Positions 1-57,594 of a stretch of 64,000 nucleotides of DNA are shown piece after piece. A program made the position numbers and the translations under genes. The notes beneath the pieces were generated by a model. The model was not told the DNA's origin and ran no database searches. It saw nothing but the letters and a program-made list of their open reading frames with translations. The DNA lies in contig NW_005201403.1 of assembly GCF_000372725.1 (NCBI RefSeq), positions 186,001 to 250,000 of the forward strand, written 5' to 3'. Each line of letters starts with the position of its first letter. Positions within the stretch are counted from its first letter, which is position 1. The stretch is from Emiliania huxleyi CCMP1516. Taxonomy: Eukaryota.

Positions 1-783
1 GGTCCTTGCGCGAGGGGAGCTCGATGGACTCGAGGGGCCAGGATACGCCGCGAGGAGGACGGAGTTGCGCCGAAAGGCGAAAGAAGCCGCGAGAACAAGG
101 GACCGGCAGGCGGCGGCGTCGCAGGACGAGGCAGAAGAGAACGACGCGACAGAGGAGGAAGTGACAAGGGAGAGAACGACGAGAGTGGGACGACCGCGAG
201 GTGGCATGAAGGTTGCAGCGAGAATCGGCGAGAGACTGCGAAGAGAGATAGGAAGAGGCAGACTCCCTAGGGTGGGCGACGGCTAGCGCACCACACACCT
301 CTCCTTAAAATCCCTGTGTGGTGGCGGCGTGCCGTCCTCCCATCCCTCCCTTGGGTTGTCTGTTTTCTTTCTTTCTTTCTTTACTGGGCACGGGACTGGC
401 TCGCACTGGCACTAACACAGGTACACCACGGGAGCCGCCTAAGCGACTCCTGCGAGGGCGGCGAGGCACTTAGCTCCGTGCACCCGCCCACCCCCGCCAC
501 AGGCAAGCTCATTCACAACCTGCTCTGCGATTGCCGTGTGAAGAACGACACTGAGATACGCTGCTTCTGCAGCCCCAGCCAATTCTTAGTGGTCCAAGAA
601 GAAGAAATGCTGTGCGCGGAAAACGGTGGCATAACGGCGTGAGCCTTGGCCGCCTCTGTCAGTGTGCCCGTGATAGTGAGAGACTGCCAGTGAGAAGCCG
701 GAGGAAGGTCGCTAGTCGAGAGAGATCGCCAGTGGAGTAGGGAGTCCACCGTGCTGCGAGCCTGTCGCTGACAACCCTTGTCG

Positions 784-1219
784 TTGGCCTGTACGAGGTT
801 TTCCGGAAAACAAAAAGGAAAACAGAGGGTCCCCAGCACTTTGCGTTGCCGGAAATTTCCAGGGAAAACAGAGGGTGTTTGGTGCTCCATTCTGGAAACT
901 CGCGAGTTTCCCTGAGTCTGAGAGCTGGTCTGGGGCAAAATCTGAGGCAAAATTGAGGAATCGACAAAATACCCAGGCGGTCGCAGGGTAATTTCCAGGT
1001 CTACACGGGTTCTCCGCAAAATTCCCGGCATTTTGACGATTTGGCCTAAAATTTGGCTGATTTTGGGCCCAAACCAGCCTCAGACTCGGCTCAGAGCCAA
1101 AAATTTGACGATTTCCACGGAGTTTTCTCGGGAAAATAGAGAGGAAAAGAGAGGGTGCTGTAGAGAAAAAAGGAAAGGAAAACAGACGGGGTGCGAGAGG
1201 AAAACCTCGTACAGCCTAA
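784..1219. mobile_element. MITE (non-autonomous DNA transposon, hAT-like) with 21-bp TIRs and 8-bp TSD
   Basis: The left end TTGGCCTGTACGAGGTTTTCC (784-804) matches the reverse complement of the right end, TTAGGCTGTACGAGGTTTTCC (1199-1219). An identical CCTTGTCG flanks both sides (776-783, 1220-1227). Partial copies lie at 3627-3707 and 43593-43710. Confidence 0.9.
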
Positions 1220-1351
1220 CCTTGTCGGGAGCAGGAGAACTAGGAGAGCGCAACCAGTAGGAGGCCCGCGCCTGCCCCCGGTGCCGCCGGGTGCAACCTG
1301 TCCTATACGAGAGGGGGGGGATTCCTGGAACCCTGTCGTGTGGGTGAACCC

Positions 1352-1579
1352 TCAGCCCCCCTCCGTGTGACCGTGTCGCGATGCGCTCCAAGAGAAGGAG
1401 AAAGGGTTTCTAAAATCTTTCCCGCTCCCGTTCCTTCCCCTGTGTCCCTGATCGTCCTTACAAGATCTCCTGCCTGCTCGTGTCCTTCTCCCACCCCTCG
1501 TTTGGTGAATACTTGCGGTAGACCTACATTTCAGACCCCCGTATCCGCAAGGAGCCTGAACCCACTCCGCAGCGGACAT
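1352..1579 (-). CDS. Possible array cassette 6 (75 aa)
   Basis: The ATG follows a partial repeat CTAAGTTCTAAATAAGCAT-ATG. No recognisable motif. Confidence 0.25.
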   Translation of the reverse strand: MSAAEWVQAPCGYGGLKCRSTASIHQTRGGRRTRAGRRSCKDDQGHRGRNGSGKDFRNPFSFSWSASRHGHTEGG

Positions 1580-1583
1580 ATGC

Positions 1584-1706
1584 TTATTTAGAACTTAGCA
1601 ACTTCCGCAGTGGAAACATCAGCCTCATAATCAAACCTCTCACTGCGGCTTGTATCTTAGTGTTCGCGGTCAAAAACGATCTGAGCAAGTCCCGAGGTGC
1701 ATCCAT
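1584..1706 (-). CDS. Array cassette 5: 40-aa IQ-motif peptide, related to cassette 1 (below the ORF-track cutoff)
   Basis: Hand translation: MDAPRDLLRSFLTANTKIQAAVRGLIMRLMFPLRKLLSSK*. The ATG is in repeat 1704-1730. Confidence 0.6.
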   Translation of the reverse strand: MDAPRDLLRSFLTANTKIQAAVRGLIMRLMFPLRKLLSSK

Positions 1707-1757
1707 GTGTGACACTGCCCTTAGAACATTTCTTTTTCAATCTTGATGCGTGATCTG

Positions 1758-1997
1758 TCAGAACATGCCATGGCGCCGCTTCCTTACGGTCTGCGACCTA
1801 ATGCCCAAGTCCTCTATTGCTGCTACTTGCATCATCTTGTTAATGTTGCGTCGAGCCAATGCTAACCACCTCCTTAGGCGTTTGATCACGGAGAAATACA
1901 AGCCAGTGGCCGCCCGCACCCCGCCTCCCGCAGAGAGCCCCGTCGTCACCAACTCGTTGCCCATGTATCCGACACCAGAGATCTCAACGGGGCGCAT
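1758..1997 (-). CDS. Array cassette 4: 79-aa basic micro-protein
   Basis: The ATG is in repeat 1995-2022 and the stop TGA lies inside degenerate repeat 1745-1766. It has a basic amphipathic segment IKRLRRWLALARRN. Confidence 0.55.
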   Translation of the reverse strand: MRPVEISGVGYMGNELVTTGLSAGGGVRAATGLYFSVIKRLRRWLALARRNINKMMQVAAIEDLGIRSQTVRKRRHGMF

Positions 1998-2045
1998 GCG
2001 TGACACTGCAGTCAGAACTTAGCGCGGACCCACCAATTCCATCAC

Positions 2046-2249
2046 TTAACCTGCGGCCATGGCCCCACCGAGTTTGAGTTTGTATAGCATCCACAACTTC
2101 TCCAGTCCGGTGACGTGGAACATCTGGTCAAAGGACCACAGTAACTTATAAAACAGTCGATGCATCTGCCAGTAGATCCGTGCGGTCAAGGCCTCCTGCT
2201 GTCTGAACCTCGCCTGATCTTCCTCTGTCCATCCCCAGACCAGATCCAT
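2046..2249 (-). CDS. Array cassette 3: 67-aa micro-protein, paralogue of cassette 2
   Basis: The ATG is in repeat 2247-2274. Sequence WTEEDQARFRQQ...HVTGLEKLWMLYKLKLGG. Confidence 0.65.
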   Translation of the reverse strand: MDLVWGWTEEDQARFRQQEALTARIYWQMHRLFYKLLWSFDQMFHVTGLEKLWMLYKLKLGGAMAAG

Positions 2250-2270
2250 GCGTGACACTACAATCAGAAC

Positions 2271-2492
2271 TTAGCCCAAGCCAGCAGCACCGAGTTTGAG
2301 TTTGTAGAGCGTCATAAATCGCCTCAGTCCGGTCGCGTGGGCTATCACATGCCAAGCGTGCAGGAAGTCCCAGTAGAGTTCCAGCAATCGCCACTTGATC
2401 TGTACGAAGAGGGGCTGCTGCTGTCTCCACTCCGCCTCATCGGCCTCTGTCCATCTGTTTCGCTCCCAGAACTCATCCAACTCACCATTCAT
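2271..2492 (-). CDS. Array cassette 2: 73-aa Trp-rich micro-protein, paralogue of cassette 3
   Basis: The ATG is in repeat 2490-2517 and the stop TAA lies inside repeat 2247-2274. Sequence WTEADEAEWRQQ...HATGLRRFMTLYKLKLGA. Confidence 0.65.
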   Translation of the reverse strand: MNGELDEFWERNRWTEADEAEWRQQQPLFVQIKWRLLELYWDFLHAWHVIAHATGLRRFMTLYKLKLGAAGLG

Positions 2493-2512
2493 GCGTGACA
2501 CTGCAATTAGAA

Positions 2513-2773
2513 CTAAGTGGTCTGGAAGCCAAACTGTGCAAGTGTCTCCTTTGTAATGGGCAGACCAGCCTTCTCAGCGAGGATCACCGCCCTCCGGAAC
2601 GGCCACCATAGCCTCTGAAGCAAGCCTCTCGCTGCGGCTTGTATCGTGCGGACAGCTGCACGTACCGCCCTCTCCGGAGCTCCATAATTTGTGAATCTCG
2701 CGTCCTTCATTAAGGAGCTAACGCGTCGGTGACCGAGGTCTCTGGCACGGAGCATTTCGGGGTCCGAGTCCAT
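2513..2773 (-). CDS. Array cassette 1: 86-aa IQ-motif micro-protein
   Basis: The ATG is the last codon of repeat 2771-2798 and the stop TAG lies inside repeat 2490-2517. Contains IQAAARGLLQR (IQxxxRGxxxR). Confidence 0.65.
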   Translation of the reverse strand: MDSDPEMLRARDLGHRRVSSLMKDARFTNYGAPERAVRAAVRTIQAAARGLLQRLWWPFRRAVILAEKAGLPITKETLAQFGFQTT

Positions 2774-2931
2774 GCGTGACACTGCAATTAGAACTTAGCG
2801 TGACACGCTCCCAAACTTAGCGTGACACGCTCCGAGATCGCAATCTCCCCAGGGTTCGGCTCCAGTGTGGGTACGGGATCCCCTACCCCCAGGGAGGGGG
2901 AACCCGCACTGGACGCGCGTCTCGGCACCAT

Positions 2932-3444
2932 ATGCCTCTCACCGCGGCCAGCAAGCGGCGGGCCATCAAGGTGGCGCTCCTGGGTTTGGTTGGCCTCACA
3001 ATCGCCACGTACGCGCTCTCCGTCGAAACGCAGATGCACGAGCCCGGCTACGAGGCTGCGTGCGACATCGGCGCGGGCTTCTCCTGCACGGCAGTCTTCT
3101 CGAGCGAGTACGCGCACCCGCTCTCTCACTGGGGTCTGGTGAAGCAGGGCGACGCCCTCGATATCGGCCTAGCAGTCGCCGGCATGGCGCTCTACTCCGC
3201 TTACTTTGTCGCCGCGTGCCTGTGGAGGTTGAACCTCGTCCCGTACCGGCAGCCGCTCTTCCTGGCGGTCGCGACCGCCGGCGCGTGCTTCTCCTGCTAC
3301 CTGCTGTACGTCCTCAAGTTCATCCTTGGCGATTTTTGCATCGTGTGCACCGGCTTCCACTGCGTCAACTTTTCGATGTTTGCAGTCGCGCTGTTTGAGT
3401 TCTTCGATAGCGGCACCAGCGGGAAGGGCGGCAAGCGTGCCTGA
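2932..3444 (+). CDS. VKOR: Vitamin K epoxide reductase (VKOR) family protein
   Basis: Loop cysteines AACDIGAGFSCTAVFSSEY, about four hydrophobic segments and the redox CxxC motif FCIVC. 170 aa, intronless. Confidence 0.93.
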   Translation: MPLTAASKRRAIKVALLGLVGLTIATYALSVETQMHEPGYEAACDIGAGFSCTAVFSSEYAHPLSHWGLVKQGDALDIGLAVAGMALYSAYFVAACLWRLNLVPYRQPLFLAVATAGACFSCYLLYVLKFILGDFCIVCTGFHCVNFSMFAVALFEFFDSGTSGKGGKRA

Positions 3445-3626
3445 GGACAGTGCTGCGCCCGGGGAGGGCGCCGGTGGTGGGGCTCGACGCTCCACCGAGC
3501 TATTGCTCTGTGACGGCCTGTGTGTGGGCTTTCGCTTGCTTCTCCACGGGGGGATGTACTGCAGAGTGGATCTTGTTGCGTCGTGGTGCTCTAACCGCCT
3601 CTATTTATCGCCACCCTCCGCACCGG

Positions 3627-3707
3627 AAATTTGATTGAAATTTCCACGGATATCCGGAAACTAGAGAGGACACGAGAGGGTGCTGTAGGGAAGAAAAGAA
3701 ACGAAAC
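3627..3707 (+). mobile_element. Internal fragment of the 784-1219 MITE family
   Basis: TTTCCACGGA...TAGAGAGGA.A.GAGAGGGTGCTGTAG matches 1112-1163. Confidence 0.65.
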
Positions 3708-3792
3708 TAGGCGGGTTGGCGCCGAGGTTACATGTATACCCTAGAGCGCGCGCGACGGGCAGAATCTCTCGGTCTCGCGCCGTCCGGCGAGC

Positions 3793-5535
3793 CTACCTAA
3801 ACGGGATGGGGCCAGGAAGGTGCTGCACAGGACGCCGGTGGCAGTGGCGCACCAACCGCATCACGGCGGCTGCACGCATCGCCCCGGATGGCCCCGAGGC
3901 CACCTGCGCTCGCGCCGCTTGCACGGTCGCGGAAAGCACCTGGCAAGCTGTGTCGGCCTCCTCCTCCTCCTCATCGCTGCTCTGTGCCATTTGCCGCACC
4001 GCAGCAAGCTTGTGCCGAGCGGGAGGAGGCGGAGGAGGCGGAGGAGGCGGCGGGCTCTCCGAAGCGTTCGCCTTCGCCGGCGGCTTCCCCGCCGCCGCCC
4101 CCCGCCGCCTGGTGGCAAGCGGCCGGCCCTCCTCTGAGTCGGAGCCGGCGCCTCCCTCTGCGCCGCCCGCCCCTCCCTCGCCCCTCCCTCCCTCGCCAGC
4201 CTGCTGCGGGTCGCCTCGCGCGCGCTTCTTTGCGCGTGCGGCGAGGGGCCGCCCCTCCTCCTCGTCCGAGTCCGGCGCCGCCTCTTGGCTCGCCTCGCGG
4301 CCGGTCGAGAAGCCAGCAGCCGGAGCGGCGGGCGGAGCAGGCGGAGCAGGTGTCGCGGGCGGAGCGGGCGGAGCGGGCGGAGCGGCCGGTCGGGGGGTTG
4401 CGGTCTTCGCCGCGGGCGGGGCGGCGGCGGCGCTGCGCGGCGAGCCGGCTTGCAGGAGGAGGCGCGCCGCCGCCGCCTCCCTCCTGGCGAGGGCGAGCAC
4501 CTCGCACTTGCGATGCACGCAGCCCTTCCGCTGCTCGATCGCACTCTTCGTCCCTCGGCAGGAGGCGCACACGCCGCAGCCGGGAGAGACGCAGCCCGCG
4601 CACTCGCCACATCTTCTGCGCGGGGCCTGCCTGCGGGCCTGGCGAGTCGGCTGGGCTGCGCCATGGAGCGGCAGAGAGGGCGGCGGCCCAGACGGCGTCG
4701 GCCCTGGCGAGGCGGCGGGCGGCGGCGGCTTCGGCTGCGGCCTCGGCGGTGCTTGCGGTGGCGGGCGCGGTGAGGGGGCCGGGAGCGACCGCTCGGCTGG
4801 CCGCGACGCGACCGACGGTTGGCGAGGAGGCGGCGGCGGCGGCGGTGGCGGCGCGGCGGTCGTCTCGTCTCTCCGCACGAGGATGAGCCGGTCGAGCCAG
4901 GCCCTGCGCTTGCGCAGCGCCCCCGGCGGCAGCGAGAGGGCCACCTCCAGCTCCGCCCGCAGCGCCCGCGCCGTCAGCGACGCAAAGTCGCTCGACGGCG
5001 TGATCCGCGATCGCAGCCACCCGGCAGCCTTCGCCTCGGGCAGCCGGGCGGCGAGGTCGGCGCCGTTTGATCCGGTGGTCCGCCAGCGCACGGAGGCGAG
5101 TGTTGCGCGCGCGCGCGCGGCGGATGCCCGGTCGGTGCCCTTGAGAGCGAGCAGGGTCGGCAGGTCGAGCCGTCGCATCAGCTGCAGCGACGCCTCCTCG
5201 CAGAGCGTCTGCCACGGGCACAGCCGGCGACGGAAGGCTGCCACTGCCGCGTCCGCACGAACGGCAGCCGCCGCCCGCTCTGCACCAGCCCGCCGCGCCG
5301 CATCGGGGTGACGCTCCGCCGAGCGCTCGTGCAGCGTTTCTTGGCCCGGTCCGCTCGGTGTCAGGTGCGGGACGGGCTCGCGGTGGCACTCGCGGACGAA
5401 CCGCATGATGGGCTCGGCTGCAGGGCCAGGAGGAGACACGAATTTGCTCGGCGGCAGCGAGGCGCGCGCCTCAAGAGGCGTGAAGCGATCGAGGATCGAG
5501 AGGAGGGGGTCATCGCGTGGCGTGGTGGGTCCCAT
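3793..5535 (-). CDS. Putative chromatin protein with DEK-C-like and zf-CXXC domains
   Basis: RRCGECAGCVSPGCGVCASC...KGCVHRKC at about 4504-4620 is a zf-CXXC pattern. DFASLTARALRAELEVALSLPPGALRKRRAWLDRLI is DEK C-terminal-like. Pro-rich and acidic linkers. The ends may involve introns. Confidence 0.7.
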   Translation of the reverse strand: MGPTTPRDDPLLSILDRFTPLEARASLPPSKFVSPPGPAAEPIMRFVRECHREPVPHLTPSGPGQETLHERSAERHPDAARRAGAERAAAAVRADAAVAAFRRRLCPWQTLCEEASLQLMRRLDLPTLLALKGTDRASAARARATLASVRWRTTGSNGADLAARLPEAKAAGWLRSRITPSSDFASLTARALRAELEVALSLPPGALRKRRAWLDRLILVRRDETTAAPPPPPPPPPRQPSVASRPAERSLPAPSPRPPPQAPPRPQPKPPPPAASPGPTPSGPPPSLPLHGAAQPTRQARRQAPRRRCGECAGCVSPGCGVCASCRGTKSAIEQRKGCVHRKCEVLALARREAAAARLLLQAGSPRSAAAAPPAAKTATPRPAAPPAPPAPPATPAPPAPPAAPAAGFSTGREASQEAAPDSDEEEGRPLAARAKKRARGDPQQAGEGGRGEGGAGGAEGGAGSDSEEGRPLATRRRGAAAGKPPAKANASESPPPPPPPPPPPARHKLAAVRQMAQSSDEEEEEADTACQVLSATVQAARAQVASGPSGAMRAAAVMRLVRHCHRRPVQHLPGPIPFR

Positions 5536-5625
5536 ATCGTTGCCCCTCTTCGCCGATCATGGCGCGAAATGTCGTGTTTTTTTTGAGGTTAGCCTTCGAT
5601 GTGATGAAACAAACGCAACGCGGAA

Positions 5626-6375
5626 ATGGCATATCGCTCTCGGGCCCACAGACATCCCGCACACCCGCCGCCCCCGCGCGCGCCCCACCCCGGCCGGGAG
5701 AAAGGGGAGTGCGACAGTTTGGGGCGGAAAGTCGAGTATTTCGCACTCCATGTGCGAGAACGCAGAGAGAAATGAAAGCCGTCCGGCCCCCAAGTCCGGC
5801 TCACGCGCCCCGAGCTCACCGTCTACCGCACTGAACACTTTCGCCCCCTCGCTCCCAACCCATCCACCTCGCCTCGGGCCGCGCCGCGCGATCTCGGGCG
5901 ATCTCGCGCTATCTCGGGCGATCTCGGGGCCGCGCCGCGCTATCTCGGGCGATCTCGGAGCGTCGCTCGCGCGGCGGCACACCTGCTCAAAAAAGGAAGG
6001 GCCCGGTTGGAGCCACGGGGCTCACGTGCTCGCTCGGTGCGCCGCCTCACTCTGCGCCATTTTTGAGGCGTTGGCGAGGGCCGGTGAGGCGGCGCCCCGC
6101 GCGGCGCGTTCATCGCCCTCCACGCCGACCCCTGCGCGCACCGCTCATCTTGGCCCTCCTGGGGTTACTCTCGCGCTCGCGCAGGACCCGGGGGACTCCC
6201 TTCCCCCCACCTCCGACGGGTTAGGTCGGTTCTGCGCCCCTTGGCGCCTGTGCATGTCCCGCGTGCCCGCTTTTTTTGAGCTGCCGGGTAGCCTTCGAGT
6301 TAGGAAACAAAGCAAGGACACGTATGGCATATCGCTCTCGGGCCCACAGACATCCCGCACACCCGCCGCCCCCGC
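5626..6375 (+). repeat. Pair of identical 52-bp direct repeats (5626-5677, 6324-6375) with similar upstream flanks
   Basis: ATGGCATATCGCTCTCGGGCCCACAGACATCCCGCACACCCGCCGCCCCCGC occurs twice, each preceded by TTTTTTGAG...TAGCCTTCGA...GAAACAAA. Confidence 0.85.
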
Positions 6376-7208: not shown

Positions 7209-11796
<4,588 letters not shown>

Positions 11797-35800: not shown

Positions 35801-37967
35801 GCATCGAGTTTCCGACGCGGGACGCGGTCCTCGCGGGGGGGCAGGAACCGTACCGCGCCTACCTCGCCGACGACCTCTCCCTCGACTGCAGCACGCCGGA
35901 GTACGCCACGGCGCAGCGGTGGGCGTACGTGCTGCTCTTCGTGTGGCCCATCGGCGAGATGCGCCGAGATGAGATGCGGCTGAGATGCGCCGAGATGCGC
36001 CGAGATCCGCGAAGACTCGCGGAGACTCGCTCGCCCCTGCTATCGTCCCAACACCGCCCCAATGTTGTCCTAACACTGTCCTCAACACTAGCCCCTTCCC
36101 CTGCCCTTCCCCCCTTCCCCTGCCCTTTCCCCCCCCCGGTCGGACACCCCCCCTCCCCCCCCCCCCCGACCCGGCCAGGCGTGCCGCTACTGTACCTCGG
36201 CTTGCTGCTCGCCTCACGGCGCGACATCATGACGCGCCAGTCGACACCTCTCTTGCGTGCGACCGACTTTCTCTGGAGGGACTACGAGGACAGCGCCTTC
36301 TACTGGGAGCCGCTCGACCTCGTCCGCAAGCTGACGCTGACCGGCTTCGTGCTCATAAATACACAGGGCTCGAAGCAGCTCCGCGTCATCATCGCGCTGC
36401 TCGTCTCGATGCTCTTCCTCACCCTGCAGTACGTCCTCTCGCCGTACAAGCGCAACCTCGACGGGCGGCTGGCCATGTTCGCCAATATCGGCCTCGTCCT
36501 CGTCTACCTCGCCACGCTGACCATCAACTCGTGCTCGCTGCTCGAGACGGACACACAGACGTGCGCCGACGAGTTTGGGCTGAGCCAGCTCGGGCTGTCG
36601 TACATGTTCCTCTCCTTCACCACCGCCCTCCTCGGAATTGGGCTCATCCTCGTTCTGTGGCTCTACACAGCGGCAAGCCGCGCACCCACCTTCCGACTCG
36701 TTAGCAGCGGGCGCGAGCCGCTGCGAGACGGAGGGACGCTCCCGGAAGGCATACGGTGGCACCTATTTCTGAGCCACATCTGGTCGACGGGGCAAGACGC
36801 GGCCGCGGTGATCAAGAACCAGTTGCGGTTGCTTCTGCCTGGTGTCGAAGTCTTCCTCGACGTGGACGACCTTGAGAGCATCGCCGCTCTGGAGGAGTAC
36901 ATCTCGAGCTCTCGTGTCGTGCTTCTGTTCCTATCACGGGGCTACCTTCGCTCGGTGAATTGCCAGCGCGAGGTGCGTGCTGCTTTAGCTAACAACAAGC
37001 CCATTGTGCTCGTTCAGGAGGTGGATCCGGAGAAGGGAGGCGGTGCACTGGCCGAGCTCCGCGCGGAGTGCCCCGCTGAGTTGCAGAATGGAGTCTTCGA
37101 CAATCGTCAGCCAATCCCTTGGCATCGGATTCGTGAGTTCCAGCTCGTCTCCCTAAAGCTGATTGCCGAAGCGACGCTACTGCAGACGCCAAGATACTGC
37201 GGGAAGAGCAACCTGCCGCTTTACCTCCCTGGTGAGCTCCGTAGTGAGGGCCTTAGCTTCACGCAGCCACTCATTCTTTGGACATCGACCGCAAACCGCG
37301 GCGCGCGAGCTCTAGCCGAGGAGCTACGCGTTGCGTTCCCCCGCATCGTCCTCACCGAAGTTCCACCTCCAGGGCTTCTCGATAAGCAAGAGAGCCAGGC
37401 GACCAATGCGCTTCAATGGCTCAGCCGTCGAGTGAGTAGTAGCAGCATCAATCAAGACGGCTCCAACGGAGAAGCTACCCATATGCTGCTCTACCTCAAC
37501 TCGTCAACCTGGTCTGACGAGCTGCTAGCGAAGCAAGTCACAGCGGCGCGCGCGGCCAGACTGCCCATCATCATGGCTCATGAGAGGGACCCAGCACGAG
37601 GCGGGTGCCTCTTTGCGCGCATGTTCGAAGTTACGCCTCAGCAGCTGATCGTCGACGGCCTCTACAAGAACCTCGCGCGCTCGTGCTTTCCCGATCCGCA
37701 CCGCGGGGTACACATGAGTACAATCCTTTCTCAGCACCCAAGTATCTATCATGAGGGTCCCCGGCAACGTTTCAATAGGTGTCGCACATGCTCCTGGCTA
37801 AGGACCTCGGTGCGAGGACGCGAACGTGCGTGGCACAGCTTTGCAACCACGCGATCTTTCCTCACGCAGCGACGAGACCCCGGCGGGGGCGGCCCATCGC
37901 CGAGGGAACAGAGATGCACCAGACACGAGTGTCGATCCATCATATCTCGCAAGGCGCTGACGTGTAA
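32898..37967 (+). CDS. Large receptor-like protein: signal peptide, polyproline, GGA(I/V/L) beta-helix repeats, Cys-rich repeats, multi-pass TM region, cytoplasmic TIR domain(s)
   Basis: MFAALSLCALA and (SPPPP)n. Repeats DGGAV, SGGAIY, WGGAI and KGGALY. CPVGQRCP, CTEGNFCP and CPEGSYS repeats. About 7 or more hydrophobic segments with FYWEPLDLVRKL. TIR: HLFLSHIWSTGQD...VFLDVDDL...FLSRGYLRSVNCQREV. Several introns. Confidence 0.85.
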
Positions 37968-39461
37968 GGGAAGGCGGTCTGGACACCAACACACAAATTT
38001 ATTCTGCGGAGATCGTAGTGTCTGAGGTGTATCGGTATCGGATACCGTGGTCACGTCCGGTCCAATTGAGTGTACGGCTTTATGAGACGGTTAGGTTTCT
38101 TGCCGCCGTCCCTGGGCAGGGGCGCGCCCCGCGAGCCTGACTGTTCTTCACCTTCCTACCTACCTACCTGCCCCGCACACAGCGGGTCCCCAAGGGTGAA
38201 TCTCTCTGTGGCATGGAGGTCTGCGACCCCCGGGGCCCCGACCGAGCGAAATTCATATCACTCACTAGCTGACGTCGAGAGCTTCGTTTGCATGTATGTT
38301 GAATGAAGCCTACGAGTCCCTGACAAATGTGTGTCGCGTGCAGTTGCGCGCCTTGGGGTTGTTCTGCGGGGGGGGGGGTATAGCGGAAAGGAAAAATAAA
38401 ATCCAAGCACCAAGGAAAATCCGCGCTGATTTGCAACGAAAAACAACTTAGTGTCCGCCGCAACTGGTGGTGACGTTGCCGGCTCCCACCGGCGAATCTG
38501 GTTTTCAATCTAAATCTCCGGCGAACCATTTCGTGAGGCCTTACAGTCTGTTGCGGGCATTAAAGGCCTATTTCCAGCTTGGGGATTTGCGCCGACCGTG
38601 CGTCATTGGGACTCGTGGCGCCTCCCAGGCCCGCCGCAGCGGTCCCATGGGTACCTGCCGTCCGTACCGGTCCACGGGCTGGCCCTGGGCACATTCGGAC
38701 CGAACTCGCTGCGCAATCCGGTCTCGGTATTGCTGTCGGCGGCCGGCAGCCCTCGGGGGTCGAGTCGCAGGATGTCGCAAAACTTTGCCACACGTGCTCG
38801 AGCGTCGAGCTTCCGGTGTCCCCAGTCGCAACTACCTCCGGCGAGGTGGCTGACGTTGCACAATCACATCGGTGGCGCATGCGGAGAGCACCAGTGCTCT
38901 TTCGGTGGGCTGTCGTGGGGTGGTGCACGACACGCATTGAGAGGAGCCGAGAGAAGCAGCGGCTGTGGGGCTTCCACGGCTGCCAAAGGGTGGTTCACGA
39001 CTACTCTGAGCAGGGCTGTGCTTTGGTGGGGTTGTGCTTGAGCATGTGTGAAGTGGGAGTGCGTGCCGGCGGTGTCTGTGGGTGAAACGGGCGTGTATGA
39101 GGCCGTAAGAGCCGTGGTATGAGCCAGAGTGGGCTGCATCACCCAAAATAAGGACGGTTTGGGACAGCTCAGACTTGATACTGATGGGACTGGGCCAGGT
39201 GAGCGACAGAGAAGGCGAGGTGGTGAGCTGGGAAGCCGCTTTGTCGGCACCTGGACGTGTCGCGATGAACTGCCGAAAAGCACCTTTTGCGGCTGTTGCT
39301 CGAAACTTCGGGAGACAAGGCCTACATATTATGACTGCATCGATGCGCCTGGTGCATGAGGGCTGCGGGTCGGGACATTTCACGGTCGGTGGCGCCGGTG
39401 ATGGCCTCCGGAATGCCCTCGCAATCGCCGTCGCGACAAGGAACTGCAGACCGAGGCCGCC

Positions 39462-43592: not shown

Positions 43593-43710
43593 TTGGCCTG
43601 TATAGGAATTCCTATACTTTTCCGGCAAACAAAAAGGAAAACAGAGGGTCCCCAGCACTTTGCGTTTCCGGAAATTTCCAGGGAAAACAGAGGGTGTTTG
43701 GAGCTCCATT
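43593..43710 (+). mobile_element. Truncated left end of the 784-1219 MITE family
   Basis: TTGGCCTGTA...AACAAAAAGGAAAACAGAGGGTCCCCAGCACTTTGCGTT.CCGGAAATTTCCAGGGAAAACAGAGGGTGTTTGG matches 784-890. Confidence 0.9.
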
Positions 43711-55399: not shown

Positions 55400-55966
55400 T
55401 TCCAGCGAGCCGAGGCAAAAAAAATGCGATGGGAGTCCCGGATGGCGCGTCCAAATCCTGCTCGTGCAGGTGGGGACCCTGTCCTCGTCGCATCCCGCGT
55501 TGGCGTGTTTGTTTTCTTTCTTTTACTCACACGGGACTGAAAAAAGAATATTACCACGCAAAATCCAGGGCGACGATCGGTGTCCCGGGGGCGGCCGTCA
55601 TGTGGCGAGGAGGGAGGACGACAAGTGCGCGTCGTACGGGTCGCTCTTCAACTTCATCGGCCAGTCGCGTTACGAGTGTTTGAACCAGTCACTTCGTCGT
55701 TGGGAGGTGGGTCTAACCCCACCGTCCCTGCCGACGAGCCTGGGTAGTGCACGCGGGAGCGATCGCACACCCTTTGTTGACTCGTTACTTTTTCGAATAA
55801 TAAACGCTATCACATGCTAAAGCGCCACACCTCGTGGGACTGATGTTTTCGTAAACGTAGTCGTGGCCCCCCGCTAACGTCGCACGAGTGCAACCGGTAG
55901 CTCGTCTCTTGATCCTCTTCTTGATTGCCATACAAACTCTTGCGTGCCGCGGGCATTACAACATAT

Positions 55967-56746
55967 TCAATGCCACTGTACTAAGGCTACAGTGCATTCC
56001 TCACGCTGCTTTAACAACCACTTGAACGTCTCAGACGCATTCACAGGCAATCCTAAAGCTGGCATTGCGTGCCACTCCACAGCAAGGATATCGAGCCCGC
56101 ACACAGCAGCTGGCTGTGTGACAATGACATGCCGCAGCACTTTGTACTCATGGCCTTCAATATCCAACTTGACGAATACGAAATCGCTCGCATCTACAAT
56201 CTGTGCGAGGAACGACGTGGCATCCATTGTGTGCACCGTTTTTGGCACGAAACCCTTGCTGTCAGAGATAGCGACCTGGCTGTTACTATGCCATCTTCCC
56301 TTCGCATCTTTGTAATGTTCCGCTTTTGAGCTCTCGAGGCTTGCATCCACGCCTGCACCCTGCATTTCAACGTATAAAGTACGATTTGTGGTGCTGCTCA
56401 CGCTCAATGCAGTTCCAACGAACAGCTTCACGTGGTAATCCCTGGAAAGTCGCTGCTCATACAAACTCAAGCGAGTGCTCCATCTTGGGTTTGCCTCAAA
56501 GCCATAGTAGCAGTTCTCCCGAGGCCGTGATTTACATTTGTGTAAATTACGGGACTGCTTCTGGGAGAGCCGGTCAAGCGCTGGATCCCGCCACCATTTC
56601 ATCAATGAGCTGCCATCGTTCAGTCCAACGTCGACAAAGGTGCATTTACAGCGGCAAACGCCGAAATATTTTTCATGCAGCGTTGATGAACGCATGCACG
56701 AACCAATGGAGAGTAAGGTCATGACCGAAGTAGGCATCCGTTGCAA
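55967..56746 (-). CDS. FkbM-like SAM-dependent methyltransferase
   Basis: FVDVGLNDG, YGFEANP and FVFVKLDIEGHEY. The true start is uncertain. Confidence 0.7.
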   Translation of the reverse strand: MQRMPTSVMTLLSIGSCMRSSTLHEKYFGVCRCKCTFVDVGLNDGSSLMKWWRDPALDRLSQKQSRNLHKCKSRPRENCYYGFEANPRWSTRLSLYEQRLSRDYHVKLFVGTALSVSSTTNRTLYVEMQGAGVDASLESSKAEHYKDAKGRWHSNSQVAISDSKGFVPKTVHTMDATSFLAQIVDASDFVFVKLDIEGHEYKVLRHVIVTQPAAVCGLDILAVEWHAMPALGLPVNASETFKWLLKQREECTVALVQWH

Positions 56747-57594
56747 CGACCTGGCGGGAGCGGGCTAAAAGCCCTGTCTCGCCCGAGTCCTGGGAAAGTA
56801 TAGTAAGTTCGTATCGGAAAGGAATTTTACCTGTGCACAAGAGAATTTTACGGATAGAGAAGTGAAGAAGTCCTCCAGCACAAACGCGACCGTGCTAAAG
56901 CATGCGATGGTCCCACCCATCCACGCAAGGAGCCAGTTAGAATTTTACAACAAACGATCGCTCCTCATCGCAAACCCCGTCAGCAGTCCTCCTCCGGGAA
57001 TGTACGTAAGAGCTACATACACTGACAAAACTCCCTCGCACGACACTGGGCACGGAGCCAGTTAGAATCGTTACCAAAGAAAGTCGCCCGACCGAGGCCC
57101 ATCCATCCATGTCCGTCCGCGAGCCCCCAGCTCGCCGACGGCGAGAGAGATGCCACGAGGGGTCGCGGTGGCGTCCATCGCCAGGCTCCCTAGCTCAACC
57201 GACGACCCTCGTGCCTCGGGATCGACGGCCGATCGTCATCAGACAATGAGGTCGAGAACCGCATCGGCGGCCTCAGCAGCGTCTGCAGAGAGCCGATCAG
57301 ACTCGGGTCCACGGTGAATGTCAGGTCTGCACTAGGCTCACACACAAGTCAAGGTAGATCTAAATACCGGGGGAGGTATTTCCTATGCTTCACAGCCTTG
57401 TTATTGAGAAGAAAATACGTCCTACTTCACACCTGGCGGACGGGACTGCGCACACCGTGGCGCACACCGTGGCGCACAAAGAAACGTGAACAGGCCCCAC
57501 TGCCACTCACCTTGGGTGGTGCAGGTTAGGACTTCCGCGGCGCCGCTCTGGGCGGCGGGCTGAGCCGATCGTAGCGGCGAGCCTCGGTCGAACG

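Follow-up and report, generated by a model that had tools for sequence, protein, structure and literature searches.

A 1,345-bp element in the genome of Emiliania huxleyi CCMP1516, in which a terminal leader is followed by five promoter-like repeats that each open a micro-gene, is best read as one end, cut short, of an endogenous Polinton-like virus in which micro-genes are shuffled by way of the promoter repeats, a eukaryotic counterpart of the PeSL cassettes of T4-type phages. We put the probability of this reading at about 65%. The element lies on the minus strand at 1584..2928 of the stretch that was analysed, hereafter the window (64,000 nucleotides; NCBI RefSeq assembly GCF_000372725.1, contig NW_005201403.1, positions 186,001 to 250,000 of the forward strand), and its GC content is 54-55%. 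Positions are those of the window unless a contig is named. The block had been singled out in a preliminary description, made from the letters alone, as a repeat-delimited array of small open reading frames (ORFs).

Results

The block is a polymorphic insertion at the start codon of a host gene

Four public runs were mapped on window 600-3900, three of them DNA-like (X1, X2 and X3) and one of RNA (X11). Run X3 was observed to carry an empty allele, with a joint from 1576 to 2929 at which 7 letters fit either side, and in run X2 a single contig of 1,286 nt spans both flanks of an array-less allele with about 42 other letters between them. The block 1584-2928 is therefore a polymorphic insertion; it is strain-specific, and other strains carry the empty site. 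CATATG stands on both sides of the element (7 bp with one flanking base) and is single in the empty allele, which is a target-site duplication of the short, ~6-bp type. The insertion lies exactly at the start codon of the host VKOR gene, which in the inserted allele is parted from its own upstream region.

In run X1, a contig of 1,220 nt covers 1540-2759 with 0 differences from the window, and the depth across the array is 10 against 14 and 8.6 in the flanks, that is, about single-copy. An assembly chimera is ruled out by this contig and its depth; X1 is possibly the window's own source sample and as such tests the assembly, being no independent occurrence.

The leader end of the element was found to be fixed and multi-copy. 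A scan of Joint Genome Institute (JGI) metagenomes with the repeat returned four contigs, L001 to L004; the leader is 84-93% identical in L001, L003 and L004, and its tandem part is present in L002. In L001 and L003, too, the leader abuts CATATG, of which the final four letters stand at the end of the L004 contig; in one X2 contig the leader ends at GTATAC instead, a variant end. The depth of the leader in X1, X2 and X3 is 159, 680 and 159, against 14-28 for VKOR, or roughly 6 to 50 times as much, summed contig depth being a rough guide to copy number only. The far ends vary and meet CATATG again in the window, in L001 and at loose ends in X1 and X11. In L001 the second CATATG comes 450 nt after the first, inside the first ORF, and this contig therefore looks like another truncated insertion. 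The window copy, itself truncated, has the leader at one end only and does not show terminal inverted repeats at both ends. A joint in X2 runs from position 8210 to 2325 of L004, that is, from the leader end through CATATG into the middle of a glycosyltransferase gene, and suggests a nested insertion or rearranged copies.

Each repeat opens an intronless micro-gene

The five clear and two degenerate copies of the 28-nt repeat that had been described earlier were located (Table 1). The pattern gave 4 matches at one mismatch or fewer and 0 in 100 shuffles. The repeat is composite, consisting of the tail of a leader tandem unit, the hexamer TTCTRA, a remnant of the 13-bp palindrome of the leader, and an ATG. 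As had been claimed, the final ATG of each clear copy opens an ORF (86, 73, 67, 79 and 40 aa), and four of the five have their stop codon within the copy that follows, be it clear or degenerate, ORF3 ending 24 nt short. Start-to-start spacings of 281, 243 and 252 nt fall within the 243-281 reported; the fourth is 291 nt. The reported GC content of 45-47% did not hold, the array mean being 54% (its 20 lines of 60 nt span 40-65%) against 64% for VKOR and 65% for the remaining window. The span of 1352..2833 also had to be redrawn, for the 130-nt leader extends beyond its upper end, and the 75-aa frame at 1352-1579 falls outside the system because it lies within a separate, very high-copy host repeat (600-1487; depth in the thousands in X1-X3, more than 1,000 RNA reads deep in X11). 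The window has 197 frames of 150 aa or more, and in the 68 longest of these no recombinase, reverse transcriptase or transposase was seen, in agreement with the earlier claim that none lies nearby.

Table 1. Features of the inserted element and its borders in the window
Feature	Position	Strand	Remarks
Second CATATG, truncated end	1577..1582		6-7-bp direct repeat, target-duplication-like
Degenerate repeat / promoter-like motif of next gene (zinc-finger gene in L003/L004)	~1584..1599	-	element cut off here
ORF5, 40 aa, IQ-like	1584..1706	-	3' part 91-92% DNA-identical to ORF preceding zinc-finger gene in L003, L004
Repeat 5, diverged	1704..1731	-	A-rich AAAAAGAAATG ahead of it, a type found after the motif in L002-L004
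Degenerate repeat, shortened, without ATG	~1745..1763	-	holds ORF4 stop
ORF4, 79 aa, basic	1758..1997	-	no relative among 19 other cassette ORFs compared; no large homolog search made
Repeat 4	1995..2022	-	pattern match at one mismatch or fewer
ORF3, 67 aa	2046..2249	-	paralog of ORF2, 44% identical over 57 aa
Repeat 3	2247..2274	-	pattern match at one mismatch or fewer
ORF2, 73 aa, Trp-rich	2271..2492	-	intact homologs in ENA assemblies, one apparently first after leader
Repeat 2	2490..2517	-	pattern match at one mismatch or fewer
ORF1, 86 aa	2513..2773	-	IQ-like family, paralog of ORF5
Repeat 1	2771..2798	-	leader-unit tail, TTCTAA motif, palindrome remnant and ATG; pattern match at one mismatch or fewer
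Two 13-bp palindromes AGCGTG-T-CACGCT, 22 nt apart	2797..2831		2-3 in other leaders; L002 has a second internal run
Leader, 130 nt, multi-copy	2799..2928	-	imperfect GC-rich inverted repeat (~2861-2913), then tandem units
CATATG, leader (fixed) end	2929..2934		holds VKOR start codon
Host VKOR gene, 170 aa	2932..3444	+	Pfam VKOR E 4.9e-22; RNA reads in X11; flank, outside element

Under a simple mononucleotide model, the chance that five such frames are open at this base composition is about 1e-7. Comparison of the five cassette ORFs with Pfam gave sub-threshold matches only, and with PHROGs none. The leader has a folding z of -3.3; a compensatory change was found in 0 of 28 pairs of its hairpin in 4 sequences, and because of this lack of covariation no conserved RNA structure is claimed for it. 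Two Rfam miRNA matches outside the array were judged to be chance, and no tRNA was found in window 1-6000.

Cassette content and order differ between copies

The five loci (the window and L001-L004) have five different first ORFs, no pair of which gave a BLASTP E below 0.04. Four cassettes precede the IQ-like ORF in the window, two in L002, one in L003 and three in L004. This IQ-like ORF directly precedes the promoter of a zinc-finger-like gene (121 aa, Cys-rich) in all four loci that reach that far, namely the window, L002, L003 and L004 (not L001), and the window copy stops within that promoter. Thus the first cassette, the number and the order differ among copies, and the distal order from IQ-like ORF to zinc-finger gene is kept. 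Cassettes also duplicate, as the paralog pairs ORF2/ORF3 and ORF1/ORF5 indicate, and the protein P0131, which has an ORF5-like start and an ORF1-like end, points to internal recombination of cassettes. Since P0002, a homolog of ORF2, starts with a translated leader unit and the repeat, it is apparently first in its own array.

Mapping of the host runs on cassettes a to f of L004 gave 17 joints, of which 15 were listed, 9 mapped and 4 informative. In X1, the leader joins cassette c directly, within a shared TAGTT word. In X2, cassette a joins cassette e (the zinc-finger gene) at the TTCTAA motif, with b, c and d skipped, and another joint places cassette b ahead of a, the letters between them not being known. 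In both runs, the ORF of b also occurs in a shorter version, still in frame, that starts at a full repeat joined to the leader; 62-aa forms of b occur in the protein collection, one of them on a contig of 18,979 bp. These four joints amount to gains, losses and reorderings with junctions at a repeated promoter unit, as in PeSL cassettes. The other five mapped joints have unknown letters between their ends and show only that other cassettes intervene, and an X2 joint that goes back 551 is equally compatible with a circle, with a tandem duplication and with a swapped order.

A promoter-like motif precedes most genes of contig L004

The motif WTCTRA stands about 20 nt before the ATG of most L004 genes, on both strands. 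Of its 15 sites in L004, 11 lie ahead of an ORF of 35 aa or more, one of these 11 ORFs being probably spurious, and only 14 of 202 ATGs have the motif. The distance from motif to ATG is 18-21 nt in 15 of 17 motif-bearing starts, and the back-to-back genes for an 837-aa protein and a glycosyltransferase, 37 bp apart, are both preceded by it. In five of the 17 starts TCTG replaces TCTA, and the 3' flank of the window-type repeat is GC-rich. In CroV, ChlorV, mavirus and type-4 EMALEs, TCTA is described as the late promoter (PMC8547959, PMC5294985, PMC13196603), and an arrangement of the CroV kind, in which TCTA lies a short way ahead of most start codons on either strand, was found here.

Elements of the mavirus/EMALE type are silent without their giant virus (PMC10945749). 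If the late machinery of a helper virus reads the motif, the cassettes would therefore be silent in uninfected cells. In RNA run X11, apparently from an uninfected culture, 1599-2708 drew no reads and the L004 cassettes hardly any; this blank fits silence in the absence of a helper and proves nothing. A 151-nt piece on an L004 cassette in metatranscriptome X10 (20 differences, depth 2) was not taken as expression. Small shares of matching words in runs X4-X10 were set aside as evidence of habitat, since a part of a high-copy host repeat had been included among the words compared.

The parent element may carry a penton-like gene

The 8,210 nt of L004 continue beyond the zinc-finger gene with a small membrane-type gene, the 837-aa gene and a family-2 glycosyltransferase (Pfam E 1e-28), all intronless. 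The nearest named relatives of this glycosyltransferase (1884-3764 of L004, minus strand) belong to a diatom (46%) and to brown algae (37-38%), with those of fungi and green algae coming next; such an enzyme is unusual cargo for a small virus. Clusters at 90% identity of the glycosyltransferase, the zinc finger, cassette b and a 94-aa protein include contigs of up to 18,979-23,664 bp, which is contig size and not genome size. Relatives of the interior L004 genes are present in host DNA, as a 2,639-nt contig on the 837-aa gene in X1 and as glycosyltransferase and zinc-finger pieces in X2.

The C-terminal 248 aa of the 837-aa protein (a member of an 837/845-aa family) have a few distant relatives. 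Their best Atlas match is the Sputnik minor capsid V18/19 cluster (score 0.90), and the top four of 48,161 PDB representatives matched by a low-confidence structural model (predicted local distance difference test, pLDDT, 54) are virion chains of Sputnik (Z 6.1), the mavirus penton (5.8) and PBCV-1 (5.2 and 5.2), with a root-mean-square deviation of about 4 over 100-109 aligned residues; C2 domains come just below (Z up to 4.5). These matches point weakly towards a penton and do not establish one. The parent may be pictured as a virus with a genome of about 20 kb and a gene for a penton-like protein; a Polinton-like or virophage-like virus is its simplest reading.

L002 and L003 are internally deleted: the leader and cassettes are followed by part of the penton-like gene or by a short ORF, fused to a 200-nt sequence (90% identical) that the two contigs have in common and at which both end. 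A 93-aa protein of L003 (1051-1332, minus strand) has as its nearest Atlas clusters (0.91) mostly viral hypothetical proteins, Nucleocytoviricota being the commonest source; it may resemble small chromatin proteins of the Cren7 kind. Five IMG/VR matches of 18-20 nt (L005-L009) were rejected as chance, and prokaryote genomes gave 0 matches.

Leader-proximal ORFs change fast and stay open

Of the codon changes in the zinc-finger gene between L002 and L004, 8 are synonymous and 2 are replacements, which is purifying selection. ORF2 and ORF3 show no such signal, as their differences are spread evenly over codon positions. Leader-proximal ORFs therefore change fast, by drift or selection, and yet stay open. 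In the ORF1/ORF5 family, Q, A, A and R of an IQ-like motif are invariant in 8 of 8 proteins that are otherwise 31-56% identical. The consensus of the IQ motif is IQxxxRGxxxR; four of the eight family members match it, and their scores against Pfam PF00612 are 12-17 bits against a cut-off of 20.3. It is only a guess from this motif that peptides of the family may bind calmodulin-type proteins.

Other features of the window

Outside the element the window holds ordinary eukaryotic genes. At ~771-1220 the high-copy host repeat is broken by an insert of 450 bp, absent from other copies, whose ends are inverted over 22 nt; partial copies of this insert, which resembles a miniature inverted-repeat transposable element (MITE), lie at 3640-3718 (80% identical) and 43618-43710 (97% identical). 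A 580-aa low-complexity frame at 3793-5535 (minus strand) has a weak CXXC zinc finger (E 6.5e-4). At 34888-38025 (plus strand), a stop-free frame of 1,045 codons has a TIR_2 domain (E 6.6e-9) and is possibly an immune-type gene; it adjoins a frame of 926 codons without a Pfam match. A second island of low GC (50-54%) at 55501-57000, with an FkbM-type methyltransferase frame at 55967-56764, is possibly foreign.

Discussion

The observations may be put together as follows. The block is inserted between the two CATATG copies, at a site that other strains carry empty, and its leader end is common to many host copies and to the four metagenome contigs, with cassettes that vary and a distal order that is kept. 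Its parent would be the ~20-kb virus pictured above, penton-like gene included. A helper giant virus would supply the late transcription machinery that recognises WTCTRA some 20 nt ahead of the start codon, and crossover or slippage in short shared words, at junctions such as those observed, could swap promoter-plus-ORF units in frame. The products would then be accessory peptides of fast turnover, among which the IQ-like family might, speculatively, bind calmodulin-type proteins. The repeat is likely to be both a late viral promoter for one micro-gene and a recombination point at which micro-genes can be lost, duplicated or put in another order. Of the origins offered in the preliminary description, the best supported is that of a viral or Polinton-like segment, endogenous and bearing a promoter-like signal for every gene; its concern that the block might be a chimera is answered by the X1 contig, which is exact and of flank-like depth, and its call for other arrays of different content or order is answered by the four metagenome contigs and the joints in the host runs.

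Several observations weigh against this reading. Ordinary Polinton integration does not account for an element with one fixed end, a far end that varies and a duplicated CATATG; EMALEs insert without sequence specificity, and their truncated copies keep both terminal repeats (PMC8547959), whereas here the target is CATATG and there is a single end. Major capsid protein, packaging ATPase, polymerase or primase-helicase, and integrase or tyrosine recombinase were not seen by Pfam in 18 ORFs of L001-L004, contigs that cover under half of a 20-kb genome (the longest read is 8.2 kb). The penton-like domain gave no Foldseek match at E of 0.001 or below in PDB or BFVD and no sequence match, its model has a pLDDT of only 54 and Z below 8, and a second model (P0124, pLDDT 37) was unusable. 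No true relative was found in IMG/VR by DNA patterns, proteins or alignment. The joints come from short-read contigs mapped at 80% likeness, so that paralogous copies may be confused. At candidate gene starts of L004 the motif is present in 10 of 14 against 2.5% of all positions, an enrichment that is inflated because the 14 starts were hand-picked with the motif in view. A YAG lies within 5 nt of the motif in 11 of 17 motif-bearing starts, which also suits a splice acceptor. The X11 blank is uninformative if that strain lacks the allele, and the differences between ORF2 and ORF3 fall evenly over codon positions (18/21/22).

The strongest rival keeps the same virus and takes the array as a product of polarised acquisition, in which a site-specific enzyme acting on the tandem 13-bp palindromes adds units at the leader and older ones are pushed outward. 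Five first ORFs at five loci with conserved distal genes speak for it, as does the repeat, which is most intact beside the leader and degrades with distance from it. The repeat of cassette b is full where b stands first (X1, X2) and degenerate where b stands second (L004), and ORF2, second in the window, has in P0002 a homolog that is apparently first. The same pattern is given, however, by deletion and duplication between short repeats; ORF1, first in the window, is paralogous to the distal IQ-like gene and is no foreign capture, no source of cassettes outside the family was found, no recombinase gene was seen, and the joint with b before a is a reordering and not an addition. We regard polarised acquisition as unlikely. 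The bolder form of the idea, an undescribed endogenous Polinton-like lineage whose leader-anchored array actively adds promoter-plus-peptide cassettes by a palindrome-acting enzyme and whose one-ended copies at CATATG stock the algal genome, we hold to be doubtful to the same degree. If true, it would be the first integron-like gene-acquisition array in a eukaryotic virus, and dozens of cassette sets switched on by a helper giant virus would form a diversified library of antiviral or anti-host peptides.

Integron arrays are leader-anchored, with variable first cassettes, attC hairpins and an integrase. The present array is likewise leader-anchored with variable first cassettes; it differs in that its cassettes carry their own promoter-like motif and are bounded by short direct repeats and not attC hairpins, and no integron integrase was found in the window (68 longest frames) or in L001-L004. 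Nor does it resemble a CRISPR array, its units being coding and 243-291 nt long, and no CRISPR family was found in Rfam up to E 1. Of the integron- or CRISPR-like origin proposed earlier, differing content and order between copies and junctions at the repeat were borne out, and acquisition polarised by a dedicated enzyme was not.

Less likely still is that the repeat is a fused branch point and 3' splice acceptor (CTRAY...YAG), by which the host spliceosome would join an upstream exon or a trans-spliced leader to each ORF. All five window copies contain CTRA-N-YAG and four contain CTRAY, and the YAG counts above also speak for it. Against this, 5 of the 17 starts have AAG, GAG or no AG, in one the YAG lies 10 nt away, and the variant repeats in X1 and X2 have GAG. 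The position of the AG moves from 1 to 10 nt, whereas the distance from motif to ATG stays tight, and the splicing or trans-splicing that had been suggested is disfavoured. Divergent genes on both strands also have the motif, host DNA shows no enrichment of the fused word (19 occurrences against a shuffle mean of 30), and no spliced read was seen, though no read covered the array.

We give somewhat less credit again to a parent that is a satellite or cargo-carrying transposon (transpoviron-like or rolling-circle-like) with captured viral genes and promoters, whose one-ended movement truncates copies. It would account for the fixed hairpin end with variable far ends at CATATG and for the internally deleted L002 and L003, and no capsid or polymerase gene was seen; the penton-like domain of the 837/845-aa family, the contigs of 19-24 kb and the dense intronless genes, most of them motif-bearing, speak for a virus instead. 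That the cassettes are decaying duplication debris, with ORFs open by chance or recent copying and no useful protein, is very improbable: ORF2 and ORF3 lack a purifying signal, no expression was seen and no family match exceeded threshold, but each of the five units is filled by its open frame, changes in length preserve the frame, homologs elsewhere are full-length (in a collection of called ORFs only, which cannot show broken copies), and the four IQ-like residues are invariant.

Among known systems, the closest in principle are the PeSL cassettes of the T4-type phages RB49 and phi1, in which small orphan genes are exchanged at a repeated promoter unit (PMC2839356); promoter-mediated shuffling of micro-genes is thus already known from phages. 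As there, a promoter unit ending at the start codon stands before each small orphan gene, and loss, gain and exchange take place at the units. The present array differs in its eukaryotic host, its endogenous state, its motif like that of late giant-virus genes and its fixed terminal leader, mini-circles being a feature of PeSL. It is not a PeSL member, since its 28-nt unit has a TCTA-like core, with no sigma-70 boxes, Shine-Dalgarno sequence or terminator hairpin per unit.

With mavirus and the type-4 EMALEs of Cafeteria burkhardae the element shares its endogenous multi-copy state, a GC content below that of the host, intronless genes with TCTA before them, silence without a giant virus, hypervariable regions of small ORFs and short target duplications (PMC8547959, PMC10945749); the EMALE passages of these papers describe no repeat-delimited shuffling of cassettes. 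The Polinton-like viruses (PLVs) of algae, including Gezel-14T/PgVV and those of Tetraselmis and cryptophytes, are alike in being integrated elements of 15-30 kb with a minor capsid protein and variable accessory genes, and some make target duplications of 5-6 bp, like CATATG here (10.1101/2022.07.28.501842, 10.1101/2025.10.09.676808, PMC12220804, PMC10120064). Gezel-14T differs in having an early AAAATTGA motif and not TCTA. No sequence link between this element and any named PLV was found, and its lineage is unplaced. Family A of EhV-86, also of an algal virus, has a repeated promoter-like element before many orphan genes; compared by description only, it differs in being a 104-kb region of a giant virus with early genes, for which the source passages describe no cassette exchange (PMC2211322). 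Our searches of the open-access literature turned up no account of such arrays for virophages or Polinton-like viruses.

For the host, loss by VKOR of its own upstream region may have an effect in strains that carry the insertion. If confirmed, the array would show how small algal viruses turn over their orphan genes, and its promoter word would predict the kind of helper giant virus that wakes such elements. The family offers a polymorphic, sequence-targeted insertion in a cultured marine species in which these predictions may be tested.

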